Virus record (IMG/VR): IMGVR_UViG_2548876858_000019
DNA length: 13,031 nt
From: a virus
Lineage: Duplodnaviria > Heunggongvirae > Uroviricota > Caudoviricetes
Reading direction: 5' to 3' (one strand)
Shown here: piece by piece, positions 1,249 through 13,031 of the stretch
Layout of the letters: the number at the start of each line of letters is the position of its first letter
Numbering within the stretch: the stretch's first letter is position 1
Program-made: the position numbers and the translations under genes
The notes under the pieces: model-generated
What the model was told of the DNA's origin: nothing
Databases searched by the model: none
Seen by the model: only the letters and a program-made list of their open reading frames with translations

Positions 1249-1330
1249 ACGTAAACTTTTTCCGGTTGTTGTCGATATCTCCATATCCCTCAACCGGAAA
1301 ATAATAATACAAAAATGCTTAGCCCTGCTA

Positions 1331-1564
1331 ATAATCGCCTAATCCAAACGCCTCATTCATGTTCTGGTACAGTCGCTCAAATGTACTCCGGATACGCGGT
1401 TCGCTGATTTCCAGGACATTGTCGTCATTCAGCGACCTGTCCCGTGTATCACGGGCCTGCGAATTCATCAAGGAATGCATTGCAGAGTGAAGTATCGAGT
1501 CACGCCATATTTCGCTATCAGGATTCTGTATGATGGTTACATCGCCCGGCCCAGGGCTGTTTAG
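1331..1564 (-). pseudogene. possible 3' remnant of a disrupted gene (start-less open frame)
   Basis: Minus-strand frame open for about 78 codons, ending ...EISEPRIRSTFERLYQNMNEAFGLGDY at TAG (1328-1330), protein-like composition but no upstream start; lies between cscB and the att repeat. Confidence 0.2.
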
Positions 1565-1689: not shown

Positions 1690-1711
1690 TGGTGTCCCTG
1701 CAGGAATCGAA
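1690..1711 (-). repeat. att-type direct repeat: partial copy of a tRNA 3' end (T-loop to CCA)
   Basis: Minus strand reads TTCGATTCCTGCAGGGACACCA (T-loop GTTCGATTCC, acceptor-stem 3' half, ACCA); no tRNA 5' portion upstream, so it is a partial copy; the sequence resembles what I recall of the argW tRNA-Arg 3' end; integrase start sits at the opposite end of the element. Confidence 0.6.
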
Positions 1712-2236: not shown

Positions 2237-3262
2237 ATGGATAACCCGGACAAAACTCCCGTACCTGAGGTCACTGTAGCAACAGAACCGCAGCCCTCTG
2301 CAGAATGCTTCACCTTTGGCGATCCCATTCCGGTACTGGACCGGCGCGAGCTGCTTGATTATGTGGAGTGCGTACAGATTGATCGCTGGTATGAACCGCC
2401 GGTCAGTTTTGCCGGGCTGGCACGTACCTACCGCGCTGCCGTGCATCACAGTTCACCAATTGCTGTTAAGCGTGACATTCTCAGCAGCACCTTCATCCCA
2501 CACCGCTTGCTCAGCCAGCAGTCTTTCGCCCGTTTCGTTCAGGATTATCTGGTGTTTGGTAATGCTTATCTGGAAAAGCGCACCAACTGGCTGGGTGATG
2601 TCCTCTCACTGGAGCCAGCGCTGGCAAAGTATACCCGGCGCGGCGTTGACCTAGAATCCTACTGGTTTGTGAACTACGGCCTGACGATGCAGCCTTATGA
2701 GTTCACCAGAGGCAACATTTTTCATCTGATGGAGCCGGATATTAACCAAGAGATTTACGGGCTGCCCGGTTATCTCTCCGCCATTCCGTCAACCCTGCTC
2801 AACGAGTCCGCAACGCTGTTCCGTCGGAAATATTACATCAACGGCAGCCATGTAGGCTTCATCATGTACATGACCGACGCTGCGCAGAATCAGGAGGATG
2901 TGAACAACATCCGCAAGGCAATGAAAAGTGCCAAAGGACCGGGCAATTTTCGCAATCTCTTTATGTACTCACCCAATGGCAAAAAAGATGGCATCCAGAT
3001 CATCCCCCTATCCGAAGTTGCGGCGAAAGATGAGTTTCTGAACATCAAGAACGTGAGCCGTGATGACATGATGGCAGCGCACCGTGTGCCACCGCAGATG
3101 ATGGGAATCATGCCGAGTAACGTTGGGGGGTTTGGAGATGTAGAAAAAGCCAGCCGTGTTTTTGTTCGCAACGAACTGATGCCGCTACAGAAGCGACTGC
3201 AGGAACTGAACGACTGGTGTGGCGAGAAAATAATTAGTTTTGAACCTTATACACTTGAGTAA
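2237..3262 (+). CDS. phage portal protein, P2 Q / PBSX-type
   Basis: 341 aa from ATG 2237 (track ORF starts at TTG 2135; trimmed); portal-like clip motif RDDMMAAHRVPPQMMGI; length close to P2 Q as I recall it; ends at TAA 3260-3262 before a terminator. Confidence 0.7.
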   Translation: MDNPDKTPVPEVTVATEPQPSAECFTFGDPIPVLDRRELLDYVECVQIDRWYEPPVSFAGLARTYRAAVHHSSPIAVKRDILSSTFIPHRLLSQQSFARFVQDYLVFGNAYLEKRTNWLGDVLSLEPALAKYTRRGVDLESYWFVNYGLTMQPYEFTRGNIFHLMEPDINQEIYGLPGYLSAIPSTLLNESATLFRRKYYINGSHVGFIMYMTDAAQNQEDVNNIRKAMKSAKGPGNFRNLFMYSPNGKKDGIQIIPLSEVAAKDEFLNIKNVSRDDMMAAHRVPPQMMGIMPSNVGGFGDVEKASRVFVRNELMPLQKRLQELNDWCGEKIISFEPYTLE

Positions 3263-3291: not shown

Positions 3292-4257
3292 TTAATCGGG
3301 AAGGTTACGTAAATCGATATATGAGAAAAATGCGGCACCTTTCTCAGTTAACTCGTATCGAAGATATCGATTTTCCATTATTGGCGTTGTTTTGAGTAGG
3401 CCATGGACCATCATTAACGTGCAAACATTTCTAACCAAAAAACCAGCTAAGTCAGTCGAATTTGATCTTAACCCAGAAAGAATAGTTCCTCTATACAGCA
3501 AAATGAGTCGCATTGCTGTTGTTTTAACTGGCTCTGGAGTTTCGGATAATTTTGTCGGGATCGTTAACTGTGTATTTTCAAATAGCTTATATATTTTACT
3601 GAACTCTTCCTCAGATGGTTTTTTTACTATAGCTTTACTTTCAGGAGAACGTGCAGCTCTGAGAAGTTCAACCTCAGATTTTAAAGCTTCATTTTCCTTC
3701 GTTAGTTTAGATATTTGTTCTATTAACACACTTGACTCTGATATTTCCTTTCCAGAAACCCACCCAAGGAGATTTCTCTCGACACCAATTTGAGGAAGTG
3801 TCTTATAAATTGATATTTGTATATCTTTAATATCCCGAAAAAATTCCACCGGATACCCCTTGACCTTTTGTTTGAAAGCTTCATATTTTGTCGGGTTATC
3901 TAATTCAAGAACTTCCTTACCAACTGTTTTAACTTTTTCATCTAGATATTCGTCATCAATGACTATCGAAAATAGAGGTTTGTTTGTACTTAAAGCATAA
4001 TCATATTCGAGCTCTGTATAGCAATAATCACTGCCGGGAGCAATCGTTCCATAACGCCCTCCCAGAATAAGGATGTAGATATCTGACTCATCTATCCAGC
4101 GCTTAATAATTTCTAACTGGCTTCTGTCTCCAGGCTTAAATAGCTCCATTCCCGCAGGTATATGCCCGGCAGTTAATATGGCACTTACCGCAGCTTGCCT
4201 TTCTTCAATGAGGTCTGTAAAAGTTGATGAAATGAAAACTTGAAATTTCCTATTCAT
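3292..4257 (-). CDS. DUF4062-like domain protein with coiled-coil and C-terminal domain of unknown function (candidate defence cargo)
   Basis: 321 aa from ATG 4255-4257; N-terminus MNRKFQVFISSTFTDLIEERQAAV...ILILGGRYGTIAPGSDYCYTELEYDYA fits the FISSTF/ER/GGRYG/TExEY signature I associate with DUF4062; central coiled-coil (ISKLTKENEALKSEVELLRAA); visibly AT-rich; terminators on both sides. Confidence 0.8.
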   Translation of the reverse strand: MNRKFQVFISSTFTDLIEERQAAVSAILTAGHIPAGMELFKPGDRSQLEIIKRWIDESDIYILILGGRYGTIAPGSDYCYTELEYDYALSTNKPLFSIVIDDEYLDEKVKTVGKEVLELDNPTKYEAFKQKVKGYPVEFFRDIKDIQISIYKTLPQIGVERNLLGWVSGKEISESSVLIEQISKLTKENEALKSEVELLRAARSPESKAIVKKPSEEEFSKIYKLFENTQLTIPTKLSETPEPVKTTAMRLILLYRGTILSGLRSNSTDLAGFLVRNVCTLMMVHGLLKTTPIMENRYLRYELTEKGAAFFSYIDLRNLPD

Positions 4258-4518
4258 TTTTTATCCATATAGAGTTATTGTCATCTAACATACCTACAAA
4301 ATGCTATAGGTAAATTTAAGTTGGTATTATTAGTCTTTTACTAGTATCTAATGCTGAAAAAGTTGATGAAAGAAAGACATTAGACGCAGATACCAACATC
4401 AGAGCATAATCATATGATATAGGTTAAAGCGTGTTCAAGACCGATTAACGTAAGTTCCCTAGATCTCCCCTCAGCGCGAGCAGCCCCGCCCGCCTGCCCG
4501 CTTCGCTTAACAGAATGG

Positions 4519-4632
4519 TTTTCATGCACCCCGTAAATCGCCTCAGGAGCCGCCACACAAGGGCTTTCACGTCAAAAATGATGCATGAGACTCATGCGTT
4601 TTCATGCGCCATAGACATGCACTCATGCGCTC
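4519..4632. repeat. cluster of CATGC-containing direct repeats (TTTTCATGC x2, ACTCATGCG x2, six CATGC cores)
   Basis: Seen at 4519-4527, 4599-4607 (TTTTCATGC) and 4589-4597, 4621-4629 (ACTCATGCG), plus further CATGC at 4583 and 4616; intergenic between Delta terminator and Y promoter region. Confidence 0.35.
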
Positions 4633-4656
4633 TCAGGCCAGCCAGGAAAAAGGCGT

Positions 4657-4683
4657 AAAAAATCCCGGTGCCGGGCCGGGATT
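4657..4683 (-). terminator. rho-independent terminator of the sid-delta operon
   Basis: AATCCCGG-(7 nt)-CCGGGATT hairpin 4661-4683, followed on the minus strand by TTTTTTACGCC; 21 bp downstream of the Delta stop. Confidence 0.6.
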
Positions 4684-4703
4684 AGGTAGGCGTTTTTTGC
4701 TAA

Positions 4704-4976
4704 TCAGACAGGGATTTGCTGGCGGCTTGATAACTTTGATGCAGAGCCATAGCGATTGAGCGTTTGCTGTTGTTTTTCCGGCATTTGTGCTTTGTCTGAT
4801 TCCTGTTCATTGCGCCGGGGCTTCATAATTATCTTATCCACACTTTCCAGAGCGGTAAATGTGCAGGAACATTCAAGATTCTGGCACTGATACCATGAGC
4901 GTTTAACCGACGGTGCTTCATAGGCGGTGGTTCTGGCGTGTGCAACGGTGCCGCATTCAGGACATTTCAGCGCCAT
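4704..4976 (-). CDS. Ogr/Delta-family zinc-finger late-gene transcription activator
   Basis: 90 aa, MALKCPECGTVAHARTTAY...YQCQNLECSCTF: C-x2-C...C-x4-C motif and overall pattern of P2 Ogr / P4 Delta; ATG overlaps the TGA of the upstream sid-like gene (ATGA). Confidence 0.85.
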   Translation of the reverse strand: MALKCPECGTVAHARTTAYEAPSVKRSWYQCQNLECSCTFTALESVDKIIMKPRRNEQESDKAQMPEKQQQTLNRYGSASKLSSRQQIPV

Positions 4977-5737
4977 CAGATACCCTCCATATCACGGTTA
5001 CGTTTCTGCAGCTCTTCACGTTCCTGACGGATCTTCATTTTGTGAAGGGCCGCCGGTGACGGGATTTTGCTTAAATCGACACGAGCCGCATAATCCGGCG
5101 CAACGCCCGCCAGTTTAAACACAGGGTCCAGTTCCGGCATCGCAGTGTTAGCAAGAGCCGGTTTGGTGATATGTTTGTGAATAAAGTCTTTCAGCAGTGT
5201 GTCCGGGTCATTAACTGAATTCACCACCCCCACAACGGCACTGGCTTCCCGCCCCATTGTGGTTTTGAGCAGGCTCAGTGTCTGGATTAACGCCTTACCA
5301 TGCGCCTGCATGAAGTCTTCCCAGATTTGCTTTGCGCGAATTTCCACAAGGGTGTTATGTGCGCTGATATACTGCCCGGCTAATTTCCCGGCTTCCTGCG
5401 GTAATAAGGCATTTTCGCTTTCCTGAGCTGCCAGCAGTTCATCAAAATCCTCAAGCGTTTCTCGTCCCAGCGCAATTTCCGTGCGCAGTTTTTTCATTTC
5501 CTTTGAGACTACGCCCTGACTTTCACGAAACAGCGTGCGCCACTCCTCATTCAGCGCGTTCGTCGTGGCTTCCATTTCAGCCCGGCGCTGGCGGATTGTC
5601 GCAATATTATCCGCTGCCGCTTTCTGCCGACGACGTGCTTCAAGCCATGCGCTTCTGGCTGTATTCAGGGTTTCCATTGCCTGCTGCGTTACAGCCGGAA
5701 AAGTGGAAAGGTTGTTATTCTCTGCGGTGTTGTTCAT
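4976..5737 (-). CDS. Sid/Psu-family protein (P4 capsid size determination-like; Psu-like not excluded)
   Basis: 253 aa, coiled-coil rich; segment AGQYISAHNTLVEIRAKQIWEDFMQAHGKALIQTL matches the Psu/Sid family pattern as I recall it; sits directly upstream of and coupled to delta as sid does in P4; AGGAGA Shine-Dalgarno before ATG 5735-5737. Confidence 0.65.
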   Translation of the reverse strand: MNNTAENNNLSTFPAVTQQAMETLNTARSAWLEARRRQKAAADNIATIRQRRAEMEATTNALNEEWRTLFRESQGVVSKEMKKLRTEIALGRETLEDFDELLAAQESENALLPQEAGKLAGQYISAHNTLVEIRAKQIWEDFMQAHGKALIQTLSLLKTTMGREASAVVGVVNSVNDPDTLLKDFIHKHITKPALANTAMPELDPVFKLAGVAPDYAARVDLSKIPSPAALHKMKIRQEREELQKRNRDMEGI

Positions 5738-5914: not shown

Positions 5915-6110
5915 GGTGAAACAGGTGGAACAGGTGTTACAGCATTGTTTTGTAAAACATTTATATGCACATCACAGGTGAAACATCGCAGGTAACAAGG
6001 TGGAACAGCGGATCGGCTGGCGTTCCACCTGTTCCACCTCACTATTTCAGAAGGTGAAACAGGTTTAGCCCTTGTAAAATACGGGTGTTCCACCTGTTTC
6101 ACCTGTTACC
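5915..6110. repeat. iteron array, candidate replication origin / crr-like site
   Basis: At least nine copies of the 9-mer GGTG(A/G)AACA or its complement TGTT(C/T)CACC: plus orientation at 5915, 5924, 5977, 5999, 6053; minus orientation at 6021/6030, 6086, 6095, with tandem pairs; AT-rich stretch 5941-5970 in the middle; 28 bp downstream of the primase stop. Confidence 0.7.
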
Positions 6111-6137: not shown

Positions 6138-8810
6138 TTAACCCGGCACCTCGCTGTTGAAGACATAGAGTCTGCGGGGATTCATCTCTGGCGGGCGAAT
6201 GGTTGTCTGCAGCTTGCCATCGGTGGAGGGCAGCAGGTATCCACGATCCGCGCACAGACGCGCCACCTTGCGCGGGTCAAATCCCCGGCAGATTTCTTTC
6301 CAGCCGGACGGCATGACGTAGAACGTGGTGACGGCCTCCGTGCCCTGCGCGGTACTGCCTTTCTCCACCCTGCGCCAGCCCACCATATTGCCGGGGCGGT
6401 TACGCTCGTCGTGCCAGTCAGCAAAGCGGCTGTACTGATTCGCGGTAAAGAAGCTGCGTACCTGCTCCAGTGCGGCAATATCTTCCTGATTGGCGGTGTG
6501 CCCGCGATCTTTCAGCCATGCGTTCAGGCAGACGCGGGTTGCCCGCAGCGCTTCACCCTCAGGCCAGCCGGTAATACCCAGCCGGGTTGCCAGCTCGCCC
6601 GCCATCGCCACCAGTGCAAAGCGGTTCACAGCCCGGCCTACCTGATTACCCGCATCTTTCGGGGTCAGGGCGGCTGTATATTCCTTCATCAGTGACTTTG
6701 CCTGTGCCGTCAGCCCGTTAAGGTCAGCGGTCAGGGCTTTCAGCCACTCCCTGAACGGCGAACCGTAGTAGCTGGACGTGGCCCACTCCAGATGTTCCGC
6801 CAGAGCCTTGCCGCTGTCGAAGCCGTGCAGCTCCTCAAATACGCCAAATTTCCCGGAATCGCTGGGGATCTGGATCATCCTGACTTCCATCCCGGCAAAG
6901 GTACGCTCACCGGCTTTTGCCGCATGTTCGGTCAGTGACAGCTCGCCGGTTGAAAAGAACAGCAGCCGCCACTGCTTACGGGTGCGCAGCTCACCGTCCG
7001 TACCGGCACGGCCCTTGCCCTGACCGTTTGCCAGCATGTAGGCGATATTACCCGCCTCGCGTCCGTCCACCTCCCGGATCTCATCGAGCATCATGGCGGC
7101 ATCGTTGCGGCGGCTGGCGCATCCCTCCAGCGCGTTGCCGGTTGCCCGCCACGTCTGCCAGTAATCAGGCCCGCCACAAACGGAGGTTGCCGCTTTCATG
7201 GTGGTGGTCTTACCGTCAGTCGATTCCCCCTTGAGGTGGTAGCCGCCGCCGTCCATCCCAACCAGCCGTAACAGGGGTGCAGCAAAGGCCAGACTGACGG
7301 CAAACGCCACGCGGGAGTTACCGGTGCAGTAACGGGAAACGTGCTCCCGCCATTCCTCCGTTGTACCTGACACACGGAAATCGCGCCCCTGCACGGAAGT
7401 GGTCTGGAGAATGACACCCTCTGCACCTTCACCGCTGACCTCATCCTGCAGGACGTAAACCTGACCATGCCAGCCAGTGCGGCTGACGCAGGTCACGCGG
7501 CGTTCCGGTTTACACAGCGAGATATATTCCATCAGGCGGGCGCGGGCCTCACCGGTGGTGCTGATATAGGACAGCCCGTTAACCAGCAGTACCCGGCGTA
7601 GTTCCTCACCGCTACCACTGAGCATTTCCATCGGCATCGCCCAGCGGCGGCGCTCTCCCCATGTATCTTCCCACTCCAGCAGTCGCCCGAAATTACCGCC
7701 ATCAGCATCGCAGGTGATTGCCGTCACGCGCAACGGGTTGCATATTTTGACGTTCTGGATCTCCGTCTCACCGTTGCGCTGTACCTGTTTTTCATACCAG
7801 AGATATTCCTGGGTAAGACGGAACCCGTGCGGCAACTGCGTGCGGCCTTCTCCGCACAGTACAAGACCGTTACGAAAGGCTTCACGGGCACGTGTAATAC
7901 CGTGCTCACGGTGGAAGTCATTCCAGTCAGCTTTAATTTCTCCCGGTGGCAGCGTCACCCAGCCACCGACTGATTTTGCCGCCCGTTCAGCAAAGGATCT
8001 GCCGGGATTCTCGCCCCCGTCCTGAAAATCGTTATCACCGGCGATGATAATTTTTACCTCAGGCCAGCGTGCCCGCAGCGCCTGTGCGACGTTGGGCAGG
8101 TTGCCCGCCGATATGGCCGCCACTACGCATCCGGCGGTGAGCTGGCTTACCGTCAGCGCCGTGGCGTAACCTTCGGTAATCACCACCTGTACCGGCGGTT
8201 CAGACGGTAACGGGCTGAGCGCCACAAACGCGCCTTTCATCGTGCTGCCGGGCAGTATGCTTTTTTCACCCGTCGGGGCGATAAGCTGTGCACCGGTCAC
8301 GGCTCCGGCGTTCGTCGTGAGCGGTAACAGCAGGGAACCGGCAGGGAAATCCTTACCACTGATATGCTGCACGCTCCCGGTCAGGGAGGCCGGGTATCCG
8401 GCGAACCCTTTTCCGGTCAGATAGGGGCTTTCTCCCGTGTGACTCTCTTTCATCAGGGCCGCCACGGTAAGGCTCATATCGCGTTTAGGGGCTTTTTGCC
8501 TGGCGGGCTTAACGGGCAGTTCCTGCACATCCGGCACATTAAGCACCTGCGCCACCTCCTGCGCTGCCTTTCTGATGCCGTAACCGGTTATGAGCTTAAC
8601 CAGATCCAGACCATCACCATTGCCGCACTGGCTGCAAATCCACGTCCCGCGCCCGTCGAGGTCATCGAGGCGGAAGCGATCCTTGCCCCCACATTTCGGG
8701 CAGGGACCGTGCCTGCCGTTTTCAGGTACATCAATACGCAGCATCTGCAGAATGACGGGCCATTTTCCCCGCGCTGCGGCTGAAATCTGCGTAACCGTCT
8801 GTGTTGTCAT
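6138..8810 (-). CDS. P4 alpha-type primase-helicase (zinc finger + Toprim + P-loop NTPase)
   Basis: 890 aa; N-terminal HGPCPKCGG...CSQCGNGDG zinc finger; Toprim-like ITEGYATALTV and IIAGDNDFQDGG; Walker A GESTDGKTT; GGGGGA Shine-Dalgarno; ATG overlaps the TGA of the upstream ORF. Confidence 0.85.
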   Translation of the reverse strand: MTTQTVTQISAAARGKWPVILQMLRIDVPENGRHGPCPKCGGKDRFRLDDLDGRGTWICSQCGNGDGLDLVKLITGYGIRKAAQEVAQVLNVPDVQELPVKPARQKAPKRDMSLTVAALMKESHTGESPYLTGKGFAGYPASLTGSVQHISGKDFPAGSLLLPLTTNAGAVTGAQLIAPTGEKSILPGSTMKGAFVALSPLPSEPPVQVVITEGYATALTVSQLTAGCVVAAISAGNLPNVAQALRARWPEVKIIIAGDNDFQDGGENPGRSFAERAAKSVGGWVTLPPGEIKADWNDFHREHGITRAREAFRNGLVLCGEGRTQLPHGFRLTQEYLWYEKQVQRNGETEIQNVKICNPLRVTAITCDADGGNFGRLLEWEDTWGERRRWAMPMEMLSGSGEELRRVLLVNGLSYISTTGEARARLMEYISLCKPERRVTCVSRTGWHGQVYVLQDEVSGEGAEGVILQTTSVQGRDFRVSGTTEEWREHVSRYCTGNSRVAFAVSLAFAAPLLRLVGMDGGGYHLKGESTDGKTTTMKAATSVCGGPDYWQTWRATGNALEGCASRRNDAAMMLDEIREVDGREAGNIAYMLANGQGKGRAGTDGELRTRKQWRLLFFSTGELSLTEHAAKAGERTFAGMEVRMIQIPSDSGKFGVFEELHGFDSGKALAEHLEWATSSYYGSPFREWLKALTADLNGLTAQAKSLMKEYTAALTPKDAGNQVGRAVNRFALVAMAGELATRLGITGWPEGEALRATRVCLNAWLKDRGHTANQEDIAALEQVRSFFTANQYSRFADWHDERNRPGNMVGWRRVEKGSTAQGTEAVTTFYVMPSGWKEICRGFDPRKVARLCADRGYLLPSTDGKLQTTIRPPEMNPRRLYVFNSEVPG

Positions 8811-10710: not shown

Positions 10711-11685
10711 TTAAAATCTTCCTGCTTTAGATGAGCTAAGACATTCTTTTATCTTATCTTTTCCAAGTTCAACCTTTGTTTTTGGATTGTTTCTTTCTGC
10801 CACGATTTTATCTGCCCACGCGTCAATAGTCAGTTTTCCTCGTTTTCCATTGCAAGATGCTGGGTCATTTAGTAACCAATAAATAGCTGCTTTGTACACT
10901 GCCTCTCTTTTTGTTGCTGATGCTTCAACATTACCATGCACTCTTCGGATGCTTTCGATGCTGGATACACCACCATTCACATAGCTGGGTAGCTCTTTGC
11001 CAACACCGTTATCTAATTTTTCTATTTGGTATCTTGTTAAATAGATATCATCCAGTGTTATATTTCCAATAATATTTTTATTAGATGGAGATACTAATCC
11101 CTCTATTGATGATAAGCCTTCGAAAGGGGACATTGCTAATATTACCCACTCATCACTGCCAAATGCAGCATTAGTGAATGGCATATTAGCTTCTTTAAAA
11201 GAAATATCATGTGCTAATAGCCTTGCTTTACCATATACCTTTAGTTCTTTGTATAATGAAGATGTTGGGCTGATGACACATATAGACCACAATCCAGAAA
11301 GTAAGATTAATGGGCTTTTTATATTTGGTTTGTTTTCTAAATGGTATATTTGTTTTGGAGGTGAAAATGGCTTATCTTCTGTATAATCAATATCGAATTT
11401 TGCTTTTGGTATGAAATGGCTTAATGCAGATTTATTACTATAGTTTAATACTCTGGGTGGGTACATGTTTTCCCAATCTTTAAAATCTCCACCTTTACGC
11501 ATCATCATTAGCGCAGCTTCGAAACCATTTAATTCTAAGCAAAATTCGATAATTCCAATTTGAGCAAAATGGATAAGGTCATCAATTTGGCAATTAAGTA
11601 GTTCAGCAGCTCGTTTTAGGGAGCAAAATTCCATTACAGGAATACTATTCCTTTCCCAAACATTTAATCGTGTATTATCGCTCAT
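10711..11685 (-). CDS. hypothetical protein X, AT-rich, between integrase and alpA
   Basis: Track ORF starts at TTG 11763 overlapping the int stop; ATG 11683-11685 has a good AGGTGA Shine-Dalgarno and gives 324 aa starting MSDNTRLNVWERNSIPVMEF; no motif I can name; visibly AT-rich. Confidence 0.6.
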   Translation of the reverse strand: MSDNTRLNVWERNSIPVMEFCSLKRAAELLNCQIDDLIHFAQIGIIEFCLELNGFEAALMMMRKGGDFKDWENMYPPRVLNYSNKSALSHFIPKAKFDIDYTEDKPFSPPKQIYHLENKPNIKSPLILLSGLWSICVISPTSSLYKELKVYGKARLLAHDISFKEANMPFTNAAFGSDEWVILAMSPFEGLSSIEGLVSPSNKNIIGNITLDDIYLTRYQIEKLDNGVGKELPSYVNGGVSSIESIRRVHGNVEASATKREAVYKAAIYWLLNDPASCNGKRGKLTIDAWADKIVAERNNPKTKVELGKDKIKECLSSSKAGRF

Positions 11686-11759
11686 CACGTCACCTGTATG
11701 CACATATGGTAAAATGGGGCGAATAGCAGACTTTACTACTATTAGCCATTTTCTTATTT

Positions 11760-13031
11760 TCAAACAACGCGTAGTTTTTTCATTTTATAGGGGGCAATAT
11801 ATCTATCAGTGTTAGCTTCAATATAATTAGACCACCATTGCATCATCCGACGACGTTCATGCATATGCTGAGCTAAGTGTACATAAGCGGCTCGCACTTC
11901 ATTTCGTTCTTGATGGCTCATTTGCCGTTCTACTGCATCCCTCGACCATAAGCCTGATTCTGTCAGGGCTGAGCACGCCATTGCCCTAAATCCATGAAGG
12001 CAAATGTCCACCTGCGTGTCGTACCCCATAATTCTTAATGACTTATTAACTGTGTTCTCACTCATTGGTTTGTAAGGGTTACTATCTCCGGGGAAAATAA
12101 GTTCATACTCACCACTTATTTTTTTAATAGCTTCGAGAACATCAATAGCTTCATTAGATAATGGAACATAATGAATACTGCCCATTTTTGCCCCACGCTC
12201 TGAATATTTTACCCCATCAATTCTTTTTCTTTGAGCAGGAATAGTCCACATTGCATTTTCAAAATTAATTTCCTCCCATCTTGCGTGTCTCAGTTCACTG
12301 GAGCGAACAAAAGTATGAAGAGAAAATAATACTGCCAGCTTAGTTAACGGCCTCCCTGTATAGCTATCAATTTTTGATATTAATTCGGGTAATCGTTCTA
12401 ACGGAAGTGCAGGGCGATGCTTTATTTTGGGGCTGGAAATTGCTCCTCTTAGATCATGGGTAGGATTGTATTCAACAATTCCACGCTGAATAGCGTACCG
12501 GAAAACGCTTGCAAGAGTAGTTTTCACTCTTCCTGTTGTTGCTCCAATTCCCTGATCACTCATCCTCACCAATAATGGCAACAGGTCACTTGTTTTTAAT
12601 GAGTCGATGGGTTTATTTCCGATATATGGGAAAATATGATTTTCCATTTCTCTTAAAATTTTAGTGCGGGTAATCTCTTTCCATGAGGGATGGCCTATAG
12701 AGCCTTTATGCCACTCTAAAGCGATTGTCTGGAATGTAGCAGAGGCGGGTTCTGTTGGCGCTGCTTTTTTAGATACTCTGGGATCAACACCGTCGGCTAA
12801 AAGTTGCCTTGCTTCATCTCTACGCTTACGGGCAAGTGCCAGCGAAACGTCTGGGAAAACGCCCAAAGCCAGCGTAGCTTGTTTGCCGTTAAATCTGTAG
12901 TTCATTCGCCATGCCTTGGTCCCGTTCTTTTTAACTAAAAGATACAGGCTTCCCCCATCCGTCAGTTTGTAGTCTGTTTCTTTGGGTTTAGCGTTTTCAA
13001 CTTTCTTGGGTGATAGCTCATTTAGTGCCAT
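11760..13031 (-). CDS. tyrosine recombinase, P4 / CP4-57 IntA-type integrase
   Basis: 423 aa; N-terminal arm-binding region (YKLTDGGSLYLLVKKNGTKAWRMNYRFNGK); catalytic-region HGFR (HxxR) and tyrosine in RAAYVHL; start codon is the last three bases of the window, facing the presumed tRNA. Confidence 0.9.
   Translation of the reverse strand: MALNELSPKKVENAKPKETDYKLTDGGSLYLLVKKNGTKAWRMNYRFNGKQATLALGVFPDVSLALARKRRDEARQLLADGVDPRVSKKAAPTEPASATFQTIALEWHKGSIGHPSWKEITRTKILREMENHIFPYIGNKPIDSLKTSDLLPLLVRMSDQGIGATTGRVKTTLASVFRYAIQRGIVEYNPTHDLRGAISSPKIKHRPALPLERLPELISKIDSYTGRPLTKLAVLFSLHTFVRSSELRHARWEEINFENAMWTIPAQRKRIDGVKYSERGAKMGSIHYVPLSNEAIDVLEAIKKISGEYELIFPGDSNPYKPMSENTVNKSLRIMGYDTQVDICLHGFRAMACSALTESGLWSRDAVERQMSHQERNEVRAAYVHLAQHMHERRRMMQWWSNYIEANTDRYIAPYKMKKLRVV

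Follow-up and report, generated by a model that had tools for sequence, protein, structure and literature searches.

The window analysed here, a stretch of 13,031 nucleotides, is a piece of Escherichia coli chromosome: strain EC1515 and other strains match 100% of its length at 99.7% identity. The cscB gene occupies positions 1-1248, and a P4-like satellite, whose own genes lie on the minus strand, begins after it. The satellite encodes an integrase (11760-13031, minus strand), an HTH regulator, an Icd-like gene, DUF5375, a TOPRIM/DUF927 primase (6138-8810, minus strand), a Sid-like capsid-size (morphogenesis) protein of the Psu/Sid fold family (4976-5737, minus strand; Pfam PF07455, annotated as "phage capsid morphogenesis protein") and an ogr/Delta-like zinc-finger late activator (4704-4976, minus strand; Pfam PF04606, E = 1e-16, and RefSeq annotation). 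Both sid and delta are intact. The P4-like core gene set that we used comprises the integrase, an AlpA-like HTH protein, the primase (alpha-like), Sid, Delta and Psu; of these, the window has the integrase, an HTH regulator, a primase of the TOPRIM/DUF927 type, a Sid-like protein and an Ogr/Delta protein, with no separate psu. Within 4704-5737, sid is followed directly by delta without a separate psu, whereas relatives that share the cos region have the order sid-psu-delta. Gene order also differs from that of P4, the integrase gene of the window satellite being on the primase side.

The distal end of the element is marked by a 16-nt att core, CCCTGCAGGAATCGAA (1696-1711, plus strand), whose partner copy lies in tRNA-Arg in strain UTME-8. 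In that strain the same element is located between dsdC and tRNA-Arg and is flanked by this core as a 16-nt direct repeat, with copies at 2507 and 14034 of the UTME-8 locus (L286), one of which is the 3' end of tRNA-Arg (argW). The element measures 11,527 bp between the att repeats in UTME-8, as compared with 11,624 bp for P4, and fits the range of small P4-type capsids (about 11-12 kb). Because its length is so close to that of P4, the 11.5-kb satellite looks packageable. In EC1515, only 8 bases of the 16-nt att core (CCCTGCAG) are left at the integrase-side junction, which a torI-carrying prophage adjoins; excision of the element may therefore be impaired in that strain. Between cscB and att, the region 1249-1690 holds a 50-aa DUF4942 fragment (1328-1480, minus strand) along with other non-coding remnants, which probably stem from an earlier island at argW. 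Between the integrase and the HTH regulator, AT-rich DNA contains an ORF of 350 aa (10711-11763, minus strand) with no Pfam match and no PADLOC match; it may be cargo in a second variable spot.

Two further genes separate the att core from the region of main interest. A complete P2 Q-type portal ORF (2237-3262, plus strand; 60.7% identity to P2 Q) is followed by a gene for a DUF4062 protein (3292-4257, minus strand; Pfam PF13271, E = 3e-28). On the other side, the sid-delta operon ends in a terminator-like hairpin, AATCCCGG..CCGGGATTTTTT (4647-4697, minus strand; arms 4647-4668 and 4676-4697), an inverted repeat that lies downstream of ogr/delta and is kept in relatives; it immediately precedes the probable cos region. 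The hairpin and the DUF4062 gene bound a repeat-rich stretch.

An earlier note on this DNA had described a GC-rich tract and a cluster of CATGC repeats in this stretch, and both are real. The tract, CAGCCCCGCCCGCCTGCCCGC, lies at 4481-4501 (about 4478-4500 in the earlier note), and six CATGC cores fall within 106 bp (4523-4628), starting on the plus strand at 4523, 4593, 4603, 4616 and 4624, with a minus-strand copy at 4583-4587. The longer paired repeats were also recovered: TTTTCATGC at 4519-4527 and 4599-4607, and ACTCATGCG at 4590-4598 and 4621-4629. The whole window contains 27 CATGC sites on both strands, fewer than its shuffles (about 43). When 27 sites were placed uniformly in 20,000 trials, five sites within 50 bp had a probability of 1e-4 and six within 110 bp a probability of about 5e-5, so that chance is rejected as the origin of the cluster.

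The P2/P4 cohesive-end 19-mer, GGCGAGGCGGGGAAAGCAC, is absent, with no match within three mismatches anywhere in the window. The earlier note had expected a cos site here, could not recognise one and considered that it might be degenerate or lost. The expectation of place was sound: cos in P4-like elements lies between the sid/psu/delta operon and a variable hotspot (Rousset et al. 2022, PMC9122126), and the stretch is found at the same location, between delta of the sid/delta operon and the variable hotspot. The failure to recognise it was an error of strand, as the plus strand was read and the site reads on the minus strand. On that strand, 4471-4527 can be aligned, one block after another, with the 55-bp P2/P4 core and with the Fels-2-type core; a clear cos match thus exists inside the very stretch that was thought to lack one, and a degenerate site is unlikely.

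Read from 4632 to 4471, the minus strand is GCGCATGAGTGCATGTCTATGGCGCATGAAAACGCATGAGTCTCATGCATC ... (55 nt) ... GTGCATGAAAACCATTCTGTTAAGCGAAGCGGGCAGGCGGGCGGGGCTGCTCGCGCTGA, which is collinear with cos of P2, of P4 and of Fels-2-like phages of the P2 family. It comprises three parts: a distal GCATG array, a proximal box GCATGAAAACC, and a core made up of AAGCGGGCA followed by GGCGGGCGGGGCTGCTCGC. The distal array (4583-4632) has four direct copies of the repeat (4628-4624, 4620-4616, 4607-4603 and 4597-4593) and an inverted one (4583-4587), at offsets of -101, -93, -80 and -70 (direct) and -60 (inverted) from the proximal box. Alignments place a spacer of about 55 nt (4528-4582) between the array and the box. 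The proximal box (4517-4527) is the start of the 55-bp P2/P4 core, its P2/P4 equivalent being GCATTAAAACC. The left flank of the cleavage site, likewise placed by alignment, is AAGCGAAGCGGGCA (4495-4508) and carries a 5-nt tandem duplication, AAGCG, as compared with AAAGCGGGCA in phages. The predicted cosN-like cohesive-end segment GGCGGGCGGGGCTGCTCGC (4476-4494) matches P2 GGCG.GGCGGGG in its 5' half, minus one base, and differs from P2 in its 3' half. The right flank (4471-4475, within CGCGCTGA) is the counterpart of the P2 CGCGC block that follows the cohesive end, and it is here, at the start of the variable hotspot, that homology with relatives stops. The block AAGCGGGCAGGCG is unique in the window. 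All P2/P4-type core blocks are present, in order, in the 57 nt of 4471-4527, with one 5-nt duplication and one 1-nt deletion. By analogy with P2, the top strand would be nicked between 4495 and 4494, with candidate overhangs of 15, 18 or 19 nt.

The correspondence is best seen when the sites are written out, with slashes marking the borders of the cohesive end. The right end of P2 joined to its left end reads GCATtcaagggtGCATGAgattGCAT ... GCATTAAAACCGCCCCGTGAAGCGGGCG/GGCGAGGCGGGGAAAGCAC/TGCGCGCTGACGG, the 19-mer being present at both ends of the P2 database record; P4 reads ATGCATcgataaggtGCATGgctttGCATGC ... GCATTAAAACCGCCCCGCAAAGCGGGCG/GGCGAGGCGGGGAAAGCAC/CGCGCGC; and a third form, GTGCATGTCTATGCCGCATGAGATCGCATGA ... 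TCATGCAGGTGCATGAAAACCACTACATAAAGCGGGCA/GGCGTGGCGGGGATACGAG/CGCGCGC, is shared by Fels-2, Escherichia phage 500465-1 and a Klebsiella Gegavirus. Reduced to blocks, P2 is GCATTAAAACC-N10-GCGGGCG/GGCGAGGCGGGGAAAGCAC/TGCGCGC, with the same blocks in P4, the Fels-2 type is GCATGAAAACC-N9-AGCGGGCA/GGCGTGGCGGGGATACGAG/CGCGCGC, and the window is GCATGAAAACC-N14-AGCGGGCA GGCGGGCGGGGCTGCTCGCGC. In published descriptions, the conserved core of the P2/P4 cos spans 55 bp and the 5' cohesive ends are 19 nt long (Ziermann & Calendar 1990, as cited in PMC9122126, PMC3931495 and PMC9594776); by our own count the distance from the proximal box to CGCGC is 54 nt, which corresponds to the published "55-bp" homology. 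Close variants of the 19-mer occur in 186, Fels-2 and Smp131. Functional cos sites vary in the 3' half of the cohesive end (AAAGCAC in P2, ATACGAG in Fels-2, AGACGAG in Smp131; PMC3931495). The window keeps the 5' half, GGCG(-)GGCGGGG, and departs from P2 largely at those 3' positions where functional sites differ among themselves, and so these differences are no argument for inactivation. A blastn search with 4300-4760 against 50,697 phage records returned nothing, which is uninformative because the homology blocks are shorter than the 11-nt word. IMG/VR likewise contains no exact copy of a 24-mer from the window core, and degenerate patterns were used instead. A cos site can be located even when its 19-mer has drifted and BLAST is empty.

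The earlier note had also proposed a motif search for the repeats in related elements. They turned out to be conserved in P2, P4 and about 100 non-redundant P2-family phage cos regions. Our first IMG/VR scan used a pattern consisting of the proximal box and left flank only, without the distal repeats, and gave 120 loci; the Fels-2-type phage set consists of 53 non-redundant loci with a portal gene downstream. GCATG is found in the -100, -90 and -80 bins of 50, 48 and 47 of these 53 cos regions, respectively (about 90%), and essentially nowhere else within 260 bp. An inverted CATGC at -10, the palindromic partner (TCATGCA) of the proximal box, is present in 43 of the 53 phages and degenerate in the window. 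Conservation in the phage alignment starts abruptly at the first GTGCATG, with none upstream of it, and stops just after CGCGCGC. A second scan with the P2-type box yielded 46 non-redundant phages whose upstream sequences are otherwise unalignable; of these, 32, 35 and 41 have GCAT in the -100, -90 and -80 bins, respectively, and seven P4-type satellites have the same bin pattern. From these roughly 100 non-redundant loci we derived a triple GCAT(G) repeat, 70-105 nt upstream of the box, as a criterion for such sites, and the window carries this feature (-101, -93, -80, -70).

Judged by sequence, then, the CATGC repeats are GCATG repeats seen from the opposite strand, and they form part of the cos region. 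A motif that keeps its position beside cos, while the sequence around it is free to vary and the neighbouring genes change, is best interpreted as belonging to the packaging signal. The suggestion that the cluster is a packaging or regulatory site of a different kind was therefore right as to packaging and wrong as to kind, since P2-family cos carries the repeats at the same offsets. The lambda terminase protein gpNu1 binds the R sites of lambda cosB. By analogy, the GCATG repeats may be recognition sites for the small terminase subunit, and the distal array (4583-4632) would be a terminase-recognition (cosB-like) element. Neither the repeats nor terminase binding to them is described in the accessible P2/P4 cos literature, which excludes the primary paper of Ziermann and Calendar (1990), and the literature on gpM and gpP added nothing on GCATG recognition. 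Which part of P2-type cos the terminase recognises is still poorly defined, and the repeats are the obvious candidates.

Very probably, 4471-4632 on the minus strand serves as cos for the packaging of an 11.5-kb P4-like satellite that is integrated at tRNA-Arg (argW). It appears from the alignments to be a diverged but complete relative of the P2/P4 cos, an ordinary feature of a known family. Homology, collinearity, genomic context and position-specific conservation, the last in phages as well as satellites, are direct observations; what we infer is that a terminase binds here, where exactly it cuts and which phage is the helper. The GC-rich tract would be the cosN-like cleavage core, with AAGCGGGCA as its left flank and GGCGGGCGGGGCTGC(TCGC) as the predicted segment between staggered nicks. 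The GCATG repeats would make up two conserved cos elements, the proximal box GCATGAAAACC, about 25 nt before the cut, and the distal array, with direct repeats every 8-13 nt or so, 70-105 nt further upstream than the box. As a P2-family helper enters late gene expression, its terminase, with a gpM homologue as the small subunit and a gpP homologue as the large one, would recognise the GCATG repeats in the manner of gpNu1 on the R sites of lambda cosB. Recognition would place the large subunit on the GC-rich core, where it would introduce staggered nicks, and the excised 11.5-kb circle would be packaged into capsids downsized by Sid.

The cos stretch is widespread. Sequences with 88-92% identity to 4468-4700 occur in 859 of 5426 complete E. 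coli genomes. In four annotated relatives, it lies between delta and a cargo that differs each time (an ABC-three-component (ABC-3C) system, SIR2 with an ATPase, retron St85 and an IS66 insertion), followed by an integrase or IS. The cargo beside cos may have either orientation among relatives, which also carry different primase types, and the repeats stay fixed relative to cos. A third IMG/VR scan with the core pattern GGCAGGCG[GT]G[CG]GGGGCTG found 39 loci, 30 of them in cos context (a GCATGAAAAC box and a TTAAG(C/T)G(A/G)AGC(G/A) flank); the other nine matched in unrelated GC-rich sequence and were set aside. Delta and/or sid is located upstream in 29 of the 30, the remaining one (L021) having too little sequence to tell, and no plain phage with this core variant is among the 30. 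Satellites with Fels-2-type and P2-type cores also occur.

Members of this family differ from every phage examined in the AAGCG tandem duplication between the box and the cut. Their G-rich half is one base short (GGCGGGCGGGG as compared with GGCG[A/T]GGCGGGG), as it also is in phage 500465-1; CTGC(N)CG replaces AAAGCAC or ATACGAG, and the left half of the proximal palindrome is degenerate. Together, the 5-nt duplication and the 1-nt deletion put the box-to-cut geometry about half a helical turn off that of every phage examined. Variation across 30 unique family sequences is lower in the GCATG columns than in the others (mean 0.056 versus 0.133; Mann-Whitney p = 1e-4, with columns fixed by the search pattern, namely the proximal box, included in the test). 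The proximal box GCATGAAAACC is invariant in these 30 members, though it is part of the search pattern. Within the family, homology ends 3-12 nt beyond GGGGCTG, a point that falls in the predicted cohesive end or on its border; cargo exchange at cleaved cos ends would give such a pattern.

About 16% of complete E. coli genomes thus carry a satellite-only core allele. It is a tentative idea, and one that we consider improbable on balance, that an E. coli satellite lineage has evolved its own cos allele, with no helper phage carrying it and with consequences for packaging and cassette exchange. Such an allele would be marked by the AAGCG duplication, by additional GCATG repeats in the distal array, by a changed and perhaps shortened cohesive end and by the lack of a proximal palindrome. 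If this were true, the allele could bias the helper terminase toward satellite DNA, and satellite ends could be unable to anneal with helper ends; the sharp breakpoints would be footprints of cassette exchange mediated by cos ends, and defence cargo would be swapped with helpers through the captured portal gene as the other arm of homology.

The same differences can be turned against function. The missing 19-mer, the altered spacing between box and cut, the missing psu, the degenerate proximal palindrome and the lack of an IMG/VR phage with the same core variant all count against a functional cos, the altered spacing being the main point of doubt. They could mean that a packageable ancestor was inactivated for cleavage by duplication and deletion in the core and that the element is now a defective island with a decayed cos. 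The AAGCG duplication and the base missing from the G-rich half, the absence of helper phages with the variant from IMG/VR, the loss of a psu that annotated relatives have, and the EC1515 junction, with half of its att core bases and an adjoining prophage, would all agree with decay. We regard decay as quite unlikely, because 859 of 5426 E. coli genomes keep this variant, the elements that carry it differ in replication module and cargo, and its motifs are more conserved than its spacers across the 30 unique family sequences. Moreover, the element is P4-sized, most of the differences affect positions at which working cos sites vary too, and homology breaks precisely at the core, as expected of a point of recombination and cleavage that is still active. 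The element is probably a mobilisable satellite rather than a packaging-dead relic, which matters for predicting the spread of defence cargo.

Two other roles for the CATGC repeats fare worse. Given their intergenic position and a weak hairpin with trailing T's (4583-4597) that overlaps two of them, the repeats might control transcription, as operators or a late promoter for the cargo gene or by acting on read-through from delta. The target of Ogr/Delta at P2/P4 late promoters is a TGT-N12-ACA dyad. No such dyad was seen on reading the sequence by eye, no promoter-like site was found in 4500-4640, and each relative has a different cargo next to repeats that keep their position with respect to cos; transcriptional control is therefore very improbable. 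We reject the proposal that the repeats are replication-origin iterons, or a cis-acting replication region bound by the TOPRIM/DUF927 primase. Being short, multiple, intergenic and roughly helically phased (spacings of 10, 10, 13 and 7), they do resemble iterons, and the P4 crr consists of short repeats. However, the same repeats flank cos at the same offsets in P2-family phages with unrelated neighbouring genes, and these phages replicate by a mechanism different from that of P4-type satellites; they are present, too, in satellites whose primase is of a different type. Furthermore, the window has a separate P4-ori-like cluster beside the primase gene: nine TGTT(C/T)CACC iterons in both orientations at 5915-6103, between the primase and sid genes (11 matches in the whole window versus 2.65 expected). 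They resemble the type-1 repeats of P4 ori/crr, TGTTCAC(C/A), and are the likely replication cis-site of the element, so that the CATGC repeats are not this site.

Beyond cos, the order portal - cargo - cos looks like a cos-proximal hotspot captured from a helper, which we consider possible. The window portal, transcribed toward cos, has about 90% amino-acid identity to Fels-2-like, Wadgaonvirus and Gegavirus portals, apart from the first 20 or so residues, which differ; no terminase gene was found upstream of it. Fels-2-like phages have a TIR-domain or other variable gene between Q and cos, in an order like that of the window, and two IMG/VR satellites (L157 and L158) have the portal - cargo - cos layout too, with a different, 558-aa cargo. 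The portal-bearing version is present in only 9 E. coli genomes (coverage of at least 80%). The DUF4062 cargo had no PADLOC match and no close homologue in deposited phages, so that a helper hotspot is at most its putative source. Recombination at the cos end followed by a second homologous exchange has been speculated (PMC9122126); portal capture fits this scheme, and the portal could serve as the second homology arm for cassette exchange.

Among known packaging sites, lambda cos (cosN and cosB with gpNu1 R sites and an IHF site) shares with the window site, as predicted, a nicking core flanked on one side by an array of short direct repeats that would position the terminase. Cohesive-end length and terminase family differ, the likeness is functional only, and we claim no membership in lambda-type cosB. 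P2 and P4 cos are much closer. They share with the window the order and spacing of blocks, the GCAT(T/G)AAAACC box, AAGCGGGC(G/A), the GGCG.GGCGGGG 5' half and the CGCGC flank, three or four GCAT(G) repeats 70-105 nt upstream, and a location downstream of the sid/delta operon adjoining a variable hotspot; P4 cos also reads in the direction of sid and delta, as the window cos does. On the other hand, the window has CTGCTCG(C) in the 3' half where P2/P4 have AAAGCAC, lacks one base in the 5' half, has the AAGCG duplication between the box and the cut, a core of 57 rather than 55 nt, and an extra direct and an extra inverted repeat in the distal array.

The closest sequence match to the window cos is found in Fels-2-like phages (Felsduovirus, Wadgaonvirus and Gegavirus; e.g. 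NC_010463, NC_049342 and NC_049454). In these, GTGCATGTCTATGnnGCATGAnnnnGCATGA and GTGCATGAAAACC are nearly identical to the window, the left flank AAGCGGGCA is identical, and so is the synteny of portal Q, variable cargo and cos. They differ in having GGCGTGGCGGGGATACGAG without the AAGCG duplication, a well-formed hairpin GGCCCGCCAG..TGGCGGGCTTT in the spacer, whose window counterpart is degenerate, and a palindromic TCATGCAGGTGCATGA at the proximal box, the left half of which is degenerate in the window. Finally, a cos-adjacent defence hotspot is known in P4-like satellites and P2-like phages (PMC9122126, PMC8628076 and PMC13586616). As in these, homology in the window stops at cos and gives way to variable cargo, here the DUF4062 gene; the far side of the hotspot is a phage portal gene, as in a helper phage, whereas in known satellites it is the satellite integrase.
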